A stretch of 35,677 bases of DNA from Promethearchaeota archaeon (GTDB lineage: Archaea > Asgardarchaeota > Lokiarchaeia > Sigyniarchaeales > SOKP01), in NCBI GenBank assembly GCA_048940445.1, contig JBHLON010000032.1:1-35677 (forward strand). The letters are read 5' to 3'. Positions 3,012 to 30,174 of this stretch are shown here, one piece after another. A program made the translations under genes and the position numbers. Each line of letters starts with the position of its first letter. The stretch's first letter is position 1. Under the pieces are notes generated by a model. That model was given only the letters and a program-made list of their open reading frames with translations. It searched no databases and was not told the DNA's origin.

Positions 3012-4040
3012 TTAATTTGGATCTAAAATTTCCTTTGCTAAAGCTGTTCCATATACCTCTTTAGCTAATTTTTTAATTCCCTCTATCCCAATTGGTTCAT
3101 TAATAAGACGATTCGATTCCCAAATTTTCAATTGCTTAAATTCCTTTTTAATCTCTTCAATGAATTTTAACTGGCTTTCACGTAAACTATTACAGAAGTT
3201 GCATTTTTTTGCTTTAGGAGTGATCATGTTTATATGAACAGCATGAAGGGAAATGTACCTTTGAGTCAAATCACGTGCTCTTTTTACTTCTTCAAAGCTA
3301 GGGCGCTCTGCAATAGTTACTAATCTTAAAGATCCAACATTATGAATTAATTCACTTATTCGTTCTCCTCTTTTTTCAAGTTCTACGATCATATTAAATA
3401 TTTCTTTTCCTAATTCTCTTCTCTTTTCATAACTACCGTCATCAAATGGTTTAACTATCTGTCTAAACATTTTAGACAAATTTCTAATGGCACCTTTTAT
3501 CGAATTATAGAAGTTTAAAGAATATTTTAGAACAACTTTTACTTGGTCTTCAGGAATTTCAAATAGTGCAACCATGTTTCCTGTAGGAGGAAAATCAGCT
3601 ACAATTATATCAAATTGGATGTCTTGAGTATTAATATCTTCAGCATCTAATAATTTCTGAAAAAACATTGCATTTTTTAAAGCTAGCGGGATAGAATCAG
3701 CCGTAAAACTAGTATTTATAAATTTTTCGATTTGTGGTAAACTTCCGATAATTGGCATTTGTTTTGTCAGATTTTTCATTTTTTCCACTAAATCTTTGGT
3801 ATATTGTTCAGCATATAAGTCTGGATCTGGCTCAATCGCCCATAAATTATCCGTTATTGGAGATACTTTACTTTTAATAGTAATTCCAAAGATATCAGTT
3901 AGATTATGAGCTATATCAAATGATATTAATAAAACTTTTTTATCTGGGAGTAATTCTGATAATCTAAGAGCAGTTGCTGCACTAATTGAGCTCTTTCCAA
4001 CCCCACCTTTTCCTCCAAACACAATAATTTTTTCAATCAT
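3012..4040 (-). CDS. arsA: ArsA/GET3 (TRC40)-family ATPase, single domain
   Basis: FGGKGGVGKSS P-loop, SFDIAHNL switch I-like, DFPPTG switch II-like, C-terminal CNFC, EPIGIEGI. Confidence 0.85.
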   Translation of the reverse strand: MIEKIIVFGGKGGVGKSSISAATALRLSELLPDKKVLLISFDIAHNLTDIFGITIKSKVSPITDNLWAIEPDPDLYAEQYTKDLVEKMKNLTKQMPIIGSLPQIEKFINTSFTADSIPLALKNAMFFQKLLDAEDINTQDIQFDIIVADFPPTGNMVALFEIPEDQVKVVLKYSLNFYNSIKGAIRNLSKMFRQIVKPFDDGSYEKRRELGKEIFNMIVELEKRGERISELIHNVGSLRLVTIAERPSFEEVKRARDLTQRYISLHAVHINMITPKAKKCNFCNSLRESQLKFIEEIKKEFKQLKIWESNRLINEPIGIEGIKKLAKEVYGTALAKEILDPN

Positions 4041-14759: not shown

Positions 14760-14859
14760 GCGTCGTTGGTCTAGATCCGATTAAAATACTTAATGGAGGA
14801 AAATGGTAGGATCTCGGCCTTCCAAGCCGGTGACCCGGGTTCAATCCCCGGACGACGCA
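14760..14859 (+). tRNA. tRNA-Gly(TCC) with 29-nt intron at position 15/16 (14775-14803)
   Basis: Acceptor GCGTCGT/ACGACGC, anticodon TCC 14821-14823, T arm CCGGGTTCAATCCCCGG; spliced D arm GTCTAG|TGGTAGGAT. Confidence 0.9.
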
Positions 14860-15214: not shown

Positions 15215-15298
15215 CTTATCAAAATATTATAACTTTCTGAGCAATAATCTTAAATTCTTTTGTTTATTATTCAGCATTATCAAGTTCTCTGTATAGTA

Positions 15299-16441
15299 AT
15301 GACAAATAAATTCAAAATATCCTATAAAGAGTTCAAATCAACCTTAAACAAATTGAAGTATCCCGATTCATGGTTTTGGGCAAGATATACAATAAATCCA
15401 TATTCTGGTTGCAATCATAGATGTATTTATTGTGATGCAAGAAGCCAAAGATATTATTTAGAACAAGATTTTGAAACTGAAATAATAGTTAAAGTAGACT
15501 TAGATAAAAAGTTAGATAACAGAATAAAAAGAGCTCGCAGCCTCTTACCAGATGTTGTTGGACCTGGAGGTGTGTGTGATGCATATCAACCAGTTGAAAA
15601 AGAAGCTCAAAATACGAGAAAAATTTTAGAAATATTATTAAAGTATAAATTCCCCGTAAATATAGCAACAAAATCAAGTTTAGTAATAAAAGACCTTGAT
15701 ATTTTAAAGCAAATTGCAAGAGATACTTGGTGTACAATTGGATTTTCCATCACTACTACTAATGATGAGTTAGCAAAATTCTTAGAACCTTTTTCTTCTA
15801 CCCCCTCTGAACGTTTGAAAGCGATTAGCATTATTAAACAACAAGCTCCTAAAATACAAATTGGTACATACTTTATTCCTATTATTCCTTATTTAGAAGA
15901 TGATGACGATAACCTAGAAGATGTGATTAAGCATTCGAAAAGAGCTGGAGCTGAATTTATTTTATTTTCTCCAGGATTAACATTAAGGGATGCTCAAGCC
16001 CAATTTTTTATTAATAAATTAAAAAATAGTAAATATAATGGTGTTGTAAAACCAATCTTAGAATTATTCAAGGGAAAAATGTATCCACCTGTGGATTATA
16101 TTCAAAAATGTCATCAAAAATTATATAAATTATGTCAAGATCATAATATAGCTGTTCGCATTAAACGTTGGATTCCAAGCGATTATAGAAAGTGGAACTA
16201 TAAAATCTCTGAATTACTACTCAATAAAGAGTATCTTGATTGTGTGAGAACTGGAAGAACAAATAACAATCTGAAATGGGCGGGTTTAAATCTAAACAAT
16301 CTAGATGAATCAATAGTAAATTTGTATAAAAGAGGAAAGTTGTCGGAGTTAAAGAATTTTTCAAAGGATATCATTGAAGTAGTCACACCATATTTAGAAA
16401 ACATCAAAGAAACATATGGTTTAGAAAGATTTTTTAATTAA
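15299..16441 (+). CDS. Radical SAM protein, SplB/spore-photoproduct-lyase-like family
   Basis: INPYSGCNHRCIYCDAR, DAYQPVE, TKS..KDLDIL, EPFSSTPSERL; ATG 15299 preferred over TTG 15260. Confidence 0.85.
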   Translation: MTNKFKISYKEFKSTLNKLKYPDSWFWARYTINPYSGCNHRCIYCDARSQRYYLEQDFETEIIVKVDLDKKLDNRIKRARSLLPDVVGPGGVCDAYQPVEKEAQNTRKILEILLKYKFPVNIATKSSLVIKDLDILKQIARDTWCTIGFSITTTNDELAKFLEPFSSTPSERLKAISIIKQQAPKIQIGTYFIPIIPYLEDDDDNLEDVIKHSKRAGAEFILFSPGLTLRDAQAQFFINKLKNSKYNGVVKPILELFKGKMYPPVDYIQKCHQKLYKLCQDHNIAVRIKRWIPSDYRKWNYKISELLLNKEYLDCVRTGRTNNNLKWAGLNLNNLDESIVNLYKRGKLSELKNFSKDIIEVVTPYLENIKETYGLERFFN

Positions 16442-16491
16442 TTGATAGAATATAGATCAACCTAACTTGATCTACATTTTAATCGATTTGA

Positions 16492-17172
16492 ATGGGAAAG
16501 AAAAAGAAAATCTTGGATAGAAAAAATCATTGCATTTTTGAGCCAAGAAAATTATGGCAAATTGCAAAAAAAGGGATTGGATATCCGACAAAAGAGGCAT
16601 TTGATACTATTATTAAAACATTAGCTGAAGAATATCCTGGTTACATTGAAACAAAGCAAGATTGGGTTTTCAATTTTGCTGGAGGAGCAATGGGTCAAAT
16701 GATAGTTCTTCATGGTTCATTTCGAGAATATTTAATAATTTTTGGAACAAGTTTAGGTACGGAAGGAAATTCGGGTAGATATAAAGCAGAAGTTTTCGAT
16801 TTTGTATTTTCTGGTGAAATGTTATGTGAATATACGGGATGTTTTAAAAAAGAGATTTATAAACCAGGGTCACTGGCTTATCTCCCCCCCAGCATTGTAA
16901 AGCATTACTGCATCAAAGGGCAAGCTTGGATGCTTGAATATGCAAGAGGAAATATCGTCTCTATGCTTCCATTTGGTTTTGCAGATTCCATCATTAGCGC
17001 TCTTGATTACATGGCAGTACTAAAAACCATAAGACTTTATGGTAAACAGGTTGTGAAAAACTTATTTAAAAAAAGAAAAGATATAGATATTTTAATAAAA
17101 TGGCTGTTAATTATAGCAACATTAATCTGGCTTTTCTTTTATGGTATTCCAATGATTTCTAACCTTATTTGA
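16492..17172 (+). CDS. ERG2/sigma-1 receptor family protein (sterol C8-C7 isomerase-like)
   Basis: WVFNFAGGAMGQM..LHGSFREYLIIFGT..GTEGNSGRY..YKPG..WMLEYARG..LPFGFAD matches the ERG2/SIGMAR1 core. Confidence 0.88.
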   Translation: MGKKKKILDRKNHCIFEPRKLWQIAKKGIGYPTKEAFDTIIKTLAEEYPGYIETKQDWVFNFAGGAMGQMIVLHGSFREYLIIFGTSLGTEGNSGRYKAEVFDFVFSGEMLCEYTGCFKKEIYKPGSLAYLPPSIVKHYCIKGQAWMLEYARGNIVSMLPFGFADSIISALDYMAVLKTIRLYGKQVVKNLFKKRKDIDILIKWLLIIATLIWLFFYGIPMISNLI

Positions 17173-17221
17173 CCTAATAGCATTTAAATCTGTATTTAAA
17201 AAAAACTTAAAGAATAGGTAT

Positions 17222-17965
17222 ATGACTAAAATAATTATAGATGAGATTAGAAAACTTATTCAAAAGAATAAACCTGGTCTCACTGATAAACAAAAAACAA
17301 GATTATATAAAATAATAAATCCAGATATTAAAGATTATAAGATTTATGGTACTAGAGTTGCAGTGATCGAAAAAATAGTAAAAAAAGCCTTAATTAAATT
17401 AAATTGTTCTTTTGCAGATGCAATTGAAATCTTTAGGGAATTAATTAGCGCTAATATTGAGGAAGAAAAAATCGCTGGTTTTCTCTTCTTAAATCGATTC
17501 AAAAAGTACTTTGATGAGAATATACCATCATTAATTCGTGATGAATACATTATACATTGTCATACTTGGAGCGTATTAGATAGCACTTGTATAAGAGTGA
17601 TAGGTCCCTTTCTAGCCAAGAAAGGGAATGAAGAATTAGCAAAACAAGTAATTGAGGATTGGTCTGACTCCCAGAATATATGGATAAAAAGAGGCTCAAT
17701 GGTGATATTGCTTAAAATTTTTATGTTAAAGAAGGAGATTGATATGAAATTTTTATCTCATCTTGTTGAAAAATTGCTTATTTACTCTAGTGAAAATTAT
17801 ATAGAAAAAGGAATAGGTTGGCTTATTAGAACATGCTCAAAAATCGATCCTGATCAAATATCTGATTACTTAATAAAAAATAAAGATAATTTCACCCGAT
17901 TAATACTTAGAAATGGGAGCGAAAAGCTCTCTAAGGAAAGAAGGGAAATTATTTTAGAGAAATAA
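17222..17965 (+). CDS. alkD: DNA alkylation repair protein (AlkD-like HEAT repeat)
   Basis: YGTRV, TWSVLD, WSDSQNIWIKR, YIEKGIGWLIR. Confidence 0.8.
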   Translation: MTKIIIDEIRKLIQKNKPGLTDKQKTRLYKIINPDIKDYKIYGTRVAVIEKIVKKALIKLNCSFADAIEIFRELISANIEEEKIAGFLFLNRFKKYFDENIPSLIRDEYIIHCHTWSVLDSTCIRVIGPFLAKKGNEELAKQVIEDWSDSQNIWIKRGSMVILLKIFMLKKEIDMKFLSHLVEKLLIYSSENYIEKGIGWLIRTCSKIDPDQISDYLIKNKDNFTRLILRNGSEKLSKERREIILEK

Positions 17966-18585: not shown

Positions 18586-19143
18586 TTAATATAATTTTTC
18601 TAATTTATTTCTTCTACCATCATTTTTGATAAAATCTTGAAAATCCTTGTTAGTATCATCAATAAAATCCCAAAATTCATTATAAATATCTTCTTGATTC
18701 ATTTTATATTTTTTATCTAAGCACTTAACTTCACTTTCAAATTGGTCTTTTATTTTCGCTTTTTCAATTATAATTTGATTTTCTTTTGGTTTATAAGCAA
18801 GATAGTTCTCTTCTATCACTATATATTCATAAAATTCTTTTCCAGTGCCTCCCTTTGATAAAGATTTTTTAGATTTAACAAGATCATAAGCATATTCAAA
18901 ATCTACTTTCTGATATCCACGAATCATAAAATTTTTATCTACAAAAGCTTGAAAATGATGTTCACATATTAGATCTTTTGGAATGGATATTGTAGTAAGG
19001 TTTTTTGCTTGATTTATTACAGATTTAGGAAATTTCAGCTCTCTTTCTAATTTACAAACTGGGCATTTAATAGGTATTATTAAAGTTTCTTTTTCATTAT
19101 TTTGAGCACTTTCTTCAATTAATTCCAATATATATCTCCCCAA
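18586..19143 (-). CDS. Zn-ribbon hypothetical protein of the Loki-type CPxC..CEHxFxxFVDKNF family
   Basis: CPVC..LTTISIPKDLICEHHFQAFVDKNFMIRGYQKVDF. Confidence 0.7.
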   Translation of the reverse strand: MGRYILELIEESAQNNEKETLIIPIKCPVCKLERELKFPKSVINQAKNLTTISIPKDLICEHHFQAFVDKNFMIRGYQKVDFEYAYDLVKSKKSLSKGGTGKEFYEYIVIEENYLAYKPKENQIIIEKAKIKDQFESEVKCLDKKYKMNQEDIYNEFWDFIDDTNKDFQDFIKNDGRRNKLEKLY

Positions 19144-19216: not shown

Positions 19217-19765
19217 TTAAAAATACGAGATAACTTCATCTAGCTTTTTATTCATATTCTTATGATTCAATTCAAAGTTAAATTCTAATTTTGGAACTAA
19301 TTCTGATTCTAAAGCAAGTTTATGCTTTCCCTCAGAAAATTTAGCAATTGTTTCTTTATCTACTTTTATAAGAATTTCTATACTATCACCTAAAGCGACT
19401 ATTCTTCCCGCCAATTTACCTTTTATTAGGTCATCTATTCTAAATTCTTCACCTTTATGATATATACAAAATCTTTCTTTGAGTTTTTCAACTTCAAATT
19501 CCATTTTTGAGATATCAATAGGATTGTCATCTAGATAAAGCTTTCCATAATCAGACAAATCAAAATTTTTTACATTAAAATTTTCAGAATTAAAACCCCC
19601 TATCTCGATTTTATCAGGAATTTCAATTGGCATAAAAACATTTAGCGCCTTAATAACGATAGAATCTGCTGTCCCATCTGCATTAGAATCGACAGTATAT
19701 ACTGATTCTTTAGGTGGAAATATCTTCTTGATTAAAACTTTCAAAGCAGAAATATCATAAGACAT
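19217..19765 (-). CDS. Hypothetical protein
   Basis: 182-aa ORF with normal composition; no recognised motif. Confidence 0.65.
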   Translation of the reverse strand: MSYDISALKVLIKKIFPPKESVYTVDSNADGTADSIVIKALNVFMPIEIPDKIEIGGFNSENFNVKNFDLSDYGKLYLDDNPIDISKMEFEVEKLKERFCIYHKGEEFRIDDLIKGKLAGRIVALGDSIEILIKVDKETIAKFSEGKHKLALESELVPKLEFNFELNHKNMNKKLDEVISYF

Positions 19766-30070: not shown

Positions 30071-30174
30071 CGGGCCTAGCAGGATTCGAACCTGCGACAT
30101 CCCAGTCCGAAGCCGGGCACCCTTTCCGTTAATTTCAGTTATAGAAACTTAAATCCAGACTAGATTATAGGCCC
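30071..30174 (-). tRNA. tRNA-Arg(TCG) with ~30-nt D-loop intron (~30123-30153)
   Basis: On the minus strand: acceptor GGGCCTA/TAGGCCC, anticodon arm CCCGG-CTTCGGA-CTGGG, T arm GCAGGTTCGAATCCTGC. Confidence 0.9.

Follow-up and report, generated by a model that had tools for sequence, protein, structure and literature searches.

This report concerns an open reading frame (ORF) at positions 16492-17172 on the forward strand of a 35,677-nucleotide stretch of contig JBHLON010000032.1 from a Promethearchaeota archaeon; the whole of that stretch is called the window. The ORF starts with ATG and is a complete coding sequence (CDS) of 226 amino acids plus a stop codon. Its product matches Pfam PF04622, ERG2_Sigma1R, with an E-value of 9.9e-63 and 211.7 bits (cut-off 21), residues 11-194 corresponding to profile positions 19-209/210, that is, to the whole domain. 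A phmmer search of all PDB sequences returned sigma-1 receptors as the sole matches (E ~1e-31) and aligned query residues 14-188 with sigma-1 residues 36-212; the homology thus begins at query residue 14. No NCBIfam model matched the ORF product. The gene holds the single PF04622 match in the host genome (G000), and its product is 34-40% identical to eukaryotic homologs. In most discussions the ERG2/sigma-1 family features as a sterol enzyme of eukaryotes and a drug target in humans, and bacteria are credited with a few copies.

The gene product and its relatives

The gene and the parts of its product lie as follows.

16492..17172, + strand: ERG2/sigma-1 receptor family CDS, 226 amino acids (ORF list; Pfam PF04622; ratio of nonsynonymous to synonymous substitution rates, dN/dS, 0.106 against the L010 orthologue)
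16492..16530, + strand: polybasic N-terminus, residues 1-13, MGKKKKILDRKNH (6 K/R in 13; non-hydrophobic)
16522..17073, + strand: ERG2_Sigma1R domain, residues 11-194 (Pfam envelope; AlphaFold2; Foldseek to 5hk1)
16729..16731, + strand: codon of Tyr80, equivalent to sigma-1 Tyr103 (Tyr in 52/52 sequences of alignment A2)
16798..16800, + strand: codon of Asp103, equivalent to sigma-1 Asp126, in AEVFD (Asp in 44/52 aligned and 18/18 Asgard-clade sequences)
16936..16938, + strand: codon of Glu149, equivalent to sigma-1 Glu172, in WMLEYARG (Glu in 52/52 aligned sequences)
17068..17082, + strand: basic hinge KKRKD, residues 193-197, joining the alpha5-equivalent helix to the transmembrane (TM) helix (sequence; break between helices in the model)
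17083..17166, + strand: C-terminal TM tail anchor, residues 198-225, with one residue beyond (hydropathy; model; conservation in relatives)

The original prediction, made from the sequence alone, had assigned the protein to the ERG2/sigma-1 family, and the profile search, the PDB search and the predicted fold all bear this out, at a level well above chance. The structure prediction that it had proposed as a check gave a confident AlphaFold2 model from a 52-sequence alignment, with a predicted local distance difference test score (pLDDT) of 95.6 and a predicted template-modelling score (pTM) of 0.90. Foldseek matches this model to human sigma-1 (5HK1) with a template-modelling score of 0.77-0.82 and a root-mean-square deviation of 1.2-1.3 A over 183 residues at 34% identity; the runners-up are generic cupins, with E-values of about 1e-8 to 1e-7. 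The model comprises two N-terminal helices, a cupin beta-barrel (residues 58-153) and two helices, 155-169 and 173-194, which are the equivalents of sigma-1 alpha4 and alpha5. Downstream of the KKRKD hinge, AlphaFold2 renders residues 198-225 as one helix. Predicted as a homotrimer, the protein gives an interface score (ipSAE) of 0.91 against 0.00 for the best control, and in three runs the contacts agree to at least 97% with a partner pLDDT of at least 88. In calibration the mark was reached by 20 of 30 one-chain pairs (homodimers) and 1 of 23 single chains, counts that are only a rough guide to a trimer predicted from three copies with a custom alignment, and as the sigma-1 trimer is a solved structure the pass may reflect likeness to it. 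The window protein is, by this modelling, probably a homotrimer like sigma-1.

A tree of 90 sequences and 197 columns (IQ-TREE, LG+C20 with posterior mean site frequencies, PMSF; support is given as ultrafast bootstrap/SH-aLRT) splits the family into two classes. Class II unites fungal, kinetoplastid and euglenid ERG2 with myxobacterial sequences (100/98) and carries the motifs ADDxF, in which position 124 of sigma-1 is Asp and position 126 is Phe, and [WF]ALEY; the eight sequences of this type in alignment A2, eukaryotic and bacterial, all show this shift of the Asp by two residues towards the N-terminus, with Phe in its place at 126. Class I takes in all other members and carries AExxD, with Asp at 126 as in sigma-1, and WMLEY. 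As both classes (alignments A1/A2) hold prokaryotic and eukaryotic members, the acid-pair geometry of sigma-1 is the widespread prokaryotic one and not a metazoan novelty.

Residues were mapped to sigma-1 through the vertebrate orthologue P0222 (numbering as in human; E 1e-104 to Xenopus sigma-1). Y80, D103 and E149 correspond to the sigma-1 triad Y103, D126 and E172, of which the two acidic residues are those that the original prediction had correctly picked out in EVFD and WMLEY; S94, Y97 and Y183 correspond to S117, Y120 and Y206. All six are invariant across the 18 Asgard-clade sequences. Sigma-1 Tyr103 hydrogen-bonds the ligand-binding Glu. At the positions reported to form the sigma-1 pocket in 5HK1, the window protein shows the changes W89A, V84N, F133M, H154L, V162Y, W164I and T181M relative to sigma-1; sigma-1 residue 152, which is V in human and I in P0222, is A129 in the window protein. 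The pocket is that of the bacterial class I consensus, not that of sigma-1, and it is strictly conserved in the clade.

The sole hydrophobic segment of the protein lies at 198-216/205-223, with a Kyte-Doolittle 19-residue mean of 2.29. An N-terminal hydrophobic segment is absent, and the basic N-terminus is kept throughout the Asgard clade. This is how the original prediction had described the two ends, a soluble basic N-terminus and a hydrophobic C-terminal helix, and both hydropathy and the model agree with it. The polybasic stretch takes the place of the eukaryotic N-terminal TM helix and lies at the point where the TM helix of sigma-1 would exit the membrane. With a TM segment at residues 198-225 of 226, a basic hinge on its N-terminal side and a polybasic, non-hydrophobic N-terminus, the protein has the make-up of a tail-anchored protein, and by the positive-inside rule we place the cupin domain on the cytoplasmic face. 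A TRC40/GET3/ArsA ATPase is encoded in the window at 3012-4040 on the reverse strand (TIGR00345 GET3_arsA_TRC40, 157.7 bits, cut-off 135), and a second, stronger ArsA-family gene lies at G000:C139:16691-17647. Both ATPases may serve to target tail-anchored proteins.

Four architectures emerged when 117 homologs and 89 loci were scanned for hydropathy. In the Asgard clade the proteins are ~229 amino acids long, basic at the N-terminus and end in a TM helix; a C-terminal TM helix is also present in most Spirochaetota/Leptospirales homologs, which are 47-54% identical; Myxococcota, Mycobacterium, Bacillota and other bacterial homologs are TM-less and ~185 amino acids long; and in eukaryotes most full-length homologs, whether named or derived from transcriptomes, carry the TM helix at the N-terminus. 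The last agrees with the eukaryotic anchor position assumed at the outset. Because bacterial members also do without it, the N-terminal TM helix is a eukaryotic architecture and not a feature of the ERG2_Sigma1R domain family. The contrasting C-terminal anchor had been reported as a property of an archaeal homolog; it is indeed present in the archaeal protein, but Spirochaetota homologs have it too, and it is thus a subfamily trait, not an archaeal-specific one. The tree agrees with this grouping: the window's Asgard clade (100/96) sits inside a 25-sequence tail-anchored clade (100/99) that also holds Spirochaetota (100/99), a GC-rich group with an Actinomycetota-labelled contig and two unassigned groups. 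These small groups (P0028/33/34, P0029/30 and P0025-26) carry Actinomycetota as their only taxon label, on one 2-kb contig, and when metagenomes were scanned with P0034 as seed, all loci returned were of the myxobacterial class I type.

Insertion, loss and distribution

The gene interrupts a pair of genes that is conserved in the genus. The flanking features are these.

15260..16441, + strand: radical SAM protein (PA0069/Rv2578c-like), upstream flank (Pfam Radical_SAM, E 4.8e-13; NCBIfam matches below cut-offs)
16442..16491, + strand: 50-nucleotide (nt) spacer, 5' edge of the inserted segment, with a 15-nt inverted repeat at 16446-16481 (sequence, repeats)
17173..17221, + strand: 49-nt spacer, 3' edge of the inserted segment (sequence)
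17222..17965, + strand: DNA_alkylation (AlkD-like) repair protein, downstream flank (Pfam PF08713, E 1.1e-32)

The radical SAM gene is found in 35 of the 42 genomes of the genus, and the AlkD-like gene comes next in 27 of the 29 other loci of the genus. Only 0-3 nt separate the radical SAM stop from the AlkD-like start in most congeners, and the genes often overlap. The ERG2 gene stands between them only in the host G000, in G262 and in G260, whose contig begins inside the ERG2 gene and runs on into AlkD. In G234 the radical SAM/AlkD pair is intact and the ERG2 gene is elsewhere, beside ClpB and a LuxE-like gene. An AlkD tree places the three carriers within one clade of eight species (SH-aLRT 97), and the non-carriers of that clade have junction spacers of 51-178 nt. 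Remains of the inserted segment can be recognised in such junctions: G265 (L104:1312-1531) has kept ~48 nt of the ERG2 3' end together with the same ERG2-to-AlkD spacer as G260, G240 (L109:1404-1531) has kept a relic of 16-17 nt of the ERG2 3' end and the downstream spacer, and in G238 and G263 the spacer alone is left. Searched for a target-site duplication or mobile-element signature, the insertion edges yielded only AT-rich chance repeats. The simplest history that these junctions suggest is one insertion in the ancestor of the subclade, then several deletions. Given the insertion and the repeated deletions in sister species, we regard the ERG2 gene as a dispensable accessory gene.

The radical SAM/AlkD-like pair itself (window; L096-L123) may be a two-gene DNA-repair unit. 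An attempt to deduce function from gene context was rejected, as the radical SAM, AlkD-like and EMG1 genes form a conserved unit older than the insertion.

The family is rare in both groups that have the tail-anchored form. It occurs in 9 of 400 Asgard genomes, 4 of the 42 in the genus among them. Of 301 Spirochaetota genomes sampled, 5 carry it, and four of these had seeded the search. There are 152 loci among GTDB species representatives, mostly in Myxococcota and Mycobacterium, and 791 representative clusters overall; a search of IMG/VR viral contigs gave no homolog.

Elsewhere in the window, ARAGORN found no tRNA; Rfam reports a tRNA at 30071-30148 on the reverse strand (32 bits) and, at 14797-14851 on the forward strand, a partial tRNA match that stays below threshold (20.8 bits, model positions 9-63). 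Two reverse-strand ORFs downstream of the AlkD-like gene, at 18586-19143 (185 amino acids) and 19217-19765 (182 amino acids), are respectively 70% and 93% identical in the congener L010 and have no Pfam or NCBIfam match.

Proposed function and its alternatives

Sterol enzymes were sought in G000 (93% complete) and in four other ERG2-bearing Asgard genomes (90-100% complete). The five genomes gave no squalene/phytoene synthase, squalene epoxidase, FA_hydroxylase (ERG3/25) or cytochrome P450; positive controls were good for three of these four models, and that for squalene epoxidase was weak, with matches in two non-sterol bacteria only. For oxidosqualene cyclase there was only a partial, weak match (28.6 bits), to the C-terminal repeat of squalene-hopene cyclase, in a 335-residue ORF (G000:C49:41986-42237). 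A true ERG24 is likewise absent from these genomes, where the ERG4/ERG24 model finds only weak C-terminal matches of 20-26 bits in ORFs of 200-250 residues (including G000:C121:1082-1555). The weak matches are probably prenyltransferase-repeat proteins and membrane proteins resembling ICMT and steroid reductases, not sterol enzymes. As the genome has no sterol pathway, the window protein cannot serve endogenous sterol synthesis.

The Spirochaete relatives offer a different setting. In Spirochaetes bacterium Prado232 (L014:2934-8077) the tail-anchored ERG2 homolog has a tocopherol-cyclase-like gene on one side and a full ERG4/ERG24-family reductase (428 bits) on the other, and a FadL/TodX-like outer-membrane transporter is adjacent; no squalene epoxidase was found in that genome. 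Two other Spirochaete carriers, G401 and G402, have a full-length triterpene cyclase. The context in L014, together with the cyclases in relatives, hints that members of the subfamily deal with polycyclic or exogenous lipids. The L014 cluster may itself be a module by which an anaerobe takes up and modifies sterol-like lipids.

On balance we favour the view that the window protein is an accessory, tail-anchored and probably trimeric cupin that binds lipid at the membrane surface, its ligand or substrate being a polycyclic or isoprenoid lipid that the cell does not make itself and possibly scavenges. In our model the protein would be made in the cytoplasm and inserted post-translationally by its single C-terminal helix. 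The cupin barrel would then rest against the membrane from the cytoplasmic side, the alpha4/alpha5 equivalents and the polybasic N-terminus lying on the lipid surface. The protein would so present the same face as sigma-1 despite the opposite anchor, and hydrophobic ligands would pass into the barrel out of the membrane. Protonation of a double bond and stabilisation of the carbocation are the established chemistry of ERG2 in this family. The buried Glu149, Asp103 and Tyr80 could do the same to a C=C bond, which would be a double-bond isomerisation of the ERG2 type; alternatively, the triad could bind a cationic or steroid-like lipid without turnover, as in sigma-1. Within the favoured view we weigh enzyme and binder roughly evenly. 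Since the gene is dispensable and the genome offers no way to make squalene, oxidosqualene or sterols, the ligand would most likely not be a core lipid of the cell's own making; a scavenged polycyclic or isoprenoid lipid, for example a sedimentary sterol, is possible. The gene would belong to a tail-anchored subfamily that it has in common with anaerobic bacteria such as Spirochaetota, and would have been inserted in the ancestor of a small group of species, kept by purifying selection in some and deleted in others.

Several observations weigh against this picture. Sigma-1 keeps the acid pair and has no known isomerase activity, so the pair cannot tell an enzyme from a binder. Residue 93 (16768-16770) is Asn in the window protein and His in ~90% of the family, in a GHSGRY motif; the His is kept in the 82%-identical orthologue and in sigma-1 (His116). 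The Asgard genomes yielded neither a tocopherol-cyclase-like gene nor a sterol transporter or partner enzyme. The idea that a sterol may be scavenged comes from the missing pathway and one bacterial gene cluster. The neighbours in the window are DNA-repair and RNA-processing genes, which offer no functional clue, and their synteny is lost in the congener L011. Lastly, the tail-anchored clade is internally a polytomy, on which transfer between Asgard archaea and bacteria may have run in either direction.

A non-catalytic function is a possible, if tentative, alternative: the protein would be a ligand-regulated membrane protein like sigma-1, a sensor or chaperone that binds a lipid or a cationic amphiphile and performs no isomerase chemistry. 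The Asp at 126, of the sigma-1 class I type and not at the ERG2-type 124, would suit such a role, as would the match of fold and predicted trimer to sigma-1 and the lack of any pathway to supply or consume an isomerase substrate. The many pocket positions that differ from sigma-1 and equal the bacterial class I consensus speak the other way, for that consensus includes the homologs of sterol-producing Myxococcota, which are taken to be the C-8 isomerase (PMC2817430). The Spirochaete relative beside a sterol-reductase-family gene also suggests enzymology.

We consider it unlikely that the protein isomerises or binds an endogenous archaeal isoprenoid, such as unsaturated archaeol, precursors of glycerol dialkyl glycerol tetraethers (GDGTs), polyprenols or quinones. 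Archaeal membranes are isoprenoid-based, the protein's probable place at the cytoplasmic leaflet is where such intermediates occur, and the strict conservation of the pocket in the clade would fit such a ligand. However, ~90% of congeners live without the gene although their core lipid pathways are presumably the same, it has been deleted repeatedly, and the same subfamily occurs in Spirochaetota, whose lipids are ester-linked. A narrower form of the scavenging idea, in which the host takes up environmental sterols or polycyclic triterpenoids and remodels or senses them at the cytoplasmic face of its membrane, we think quite unlikely; if true, sterol handling on the archaeal side would be independent of sterol synthesis.

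Ancestry and comparison with known systems

The original prediction had left two evolutionary alternatives, descent from a form ancestral to the eukaryotic family or horizontal acquisition. Class I falls into separate branches, namely sigma-1 with some protists, another protist group, a second Asgard group, secreted bacterial proteins and TM-less bacterial proteins, on an unresolved backbone. In the whole tree the eukaryotes fall into three clades, all distinct from the window's. That the window's Asgard gene represents the lineage giving rise to eukaryotic ERG2 and sigma-1 might be argued from its Asgard host, the identity to eukaryotic proteins given above and this unresolved backbone, and an approximately unbiased (AU) test does not reject a tree that unites the two Asgard groups (p 0.11). 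We nevertheless hold it very improbable. The window's clade is nested with bacterial tail-anchored forms; a single clade of the window's Asgard group with sigma-1 and the class I eukaryotes is rejected (delta lnL 41, AU p 0.027); ERG2 proper groups with Myxococcota; and the gene is rare, inserted and repeatedly lost. Horizontal acquisition is the better fit of the two, given a gene inserted between abutting neighbours and later deleted in sister species.

The second Asgard group is another matter. It comprises the Heimdallarchaeota-labelled L005 (1501-2121) and L006, with L007, L008 and P0187, and its members are TM-less, have a hydrophilic C-terminal tail, are ~39-47% identical to the window protein and form a clade of their own (100/95). 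Joining this group to sigma-1 and the class I eukaryotes costs only 0.11 lnL units (AU p 0.50). It is a better candidate than the window gene for a link between Asgard archaea and eukaryotes, and the class I proteins of eukaryotes may possibly have come out of the Asgard gene pool by way of this TM-less lineage. Loci of the same lineage also occur at L071:5998-6669 and L074:5977-6666.

The gene is real, resident in an archaeon and under purifying selection. Its contig carries archaeal informational genes (an SRP54-type GTPase, prefoldin, eIF6, L31e, S19e, the RNase P protein Rpr2 and EMG1/Nep1), as one would expect from the archaeal residence first claimed for it. More than 10 kb around it are collinear with a 535-kb contig of a congener, the metagenome-assembled genome (MAG) Promethearchaeota archaeon DZ3S.305, and its GC content of 0.33 is similar to that of its neighbours. 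Against the 82%-identical L010 orthologue the dN/dS of 0.106, with a dS of 0.87 that equals that of the flanking genes, is the same as for EMG1 (0.107) and the radical SAM gene (0.100). Its closest homologs, named 'ERG2 family protein' at NCBI, come from Heimdall-, Hod-, Thor- and Promethearchaeota MAGs. The notion of an artefact, whether bacterial or eukaryotic contamination, mis-binning or a decaying pseudogene, could appeal to the rarity of the gene among relatives and to one nearest 'bacterial' homolog (L013) on a 2-kb contig of uncertain binning, but the mid-contig position, the intact frame, the synteny and the selection refute it and we dismiss it.

Bacterial ERG2 homologs are known from the literature (PMC2817430, PMC8237579), and the Asgard proteins are already labelled by the NCBI and JGI pipelines. 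When the literature was searched for ERG2/sigma-1 in Asgard or other archaea, no paper on an archaeal or a tail-anchored member came up; the division into class I and class II, the evidence of insertion and relics, and the AU tests are new here. Since the tail-anchored subfamily lives in anaerobes without sterol production of their own, one may ask what the fold does apart from sterol synthesis. The deep division between sigma-1-type and ERG2-type proteins, each with prokaryotic members, means that sigma-1 need not be a derived ERG2, and eukaryotic sterol biosynthesis does not find its archaeal ancestor in the window gene. A gene that was inserted and then deleted again in sister species, where its relics persist, amounts to a natural experiment on dispensability. 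As the protein is small, confidently modelled and easily expressed, tests of ligand and activity are practical.

Among characterised proteins the closest is the sigma-1 receptor (SIGMAR1; 5HK1, 6DJZ, 7W2B), which has in common with the window protein the Pfam family, the fold of cupin and alpha4/alpha5, the triad and the equivalents of Tyr120, Ser117 and Tyr206. The two differ in that the window protein is anchored at its C-terminus and sigma-1 at its N-terminus, and in at least eight pocket positions; moreover, the window protein falls outside the metazoan sigma-1 clade, lacks equivalents of W89, H154 and W164, and belongs to a host without sterols or an endoplasmic reticulum. Fungal and kinetoplastid ERG2 is of the same family, with ~40% identity over 80% of the length and an invariant Glu in WxLEYxRG. 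Unlike the window protein, which has AEVFD and no pathway around it, ERG2 is a class II protein with ADDxF, an N-terminal anchor and a full sterol pathway. The TM-less bacterial homologs (~185 amino acids; Myxococcota, Mycobacterium, Bacillota) show the same class I pocket consensus at 44-53% identity; they differ in having no anchor at either end, in forming a separate clade and in that many of their hosts (Myxococcota) make sterols. The Spirochaetota/Leptospirales homologs (L014-L021), 47-54% identical and of the same subfamily (100/99), are among the nearest relatives. At least six of these eight (within L014-L020) clearly end in a TM helix preceded by a basic hinge, and the homologs share the motifs AEVxD and WM[LIM]EYxRG with the window protein; they are rare in their phylum, and they differ in their bacterial hosts and in N-termini that are longer and less basic.

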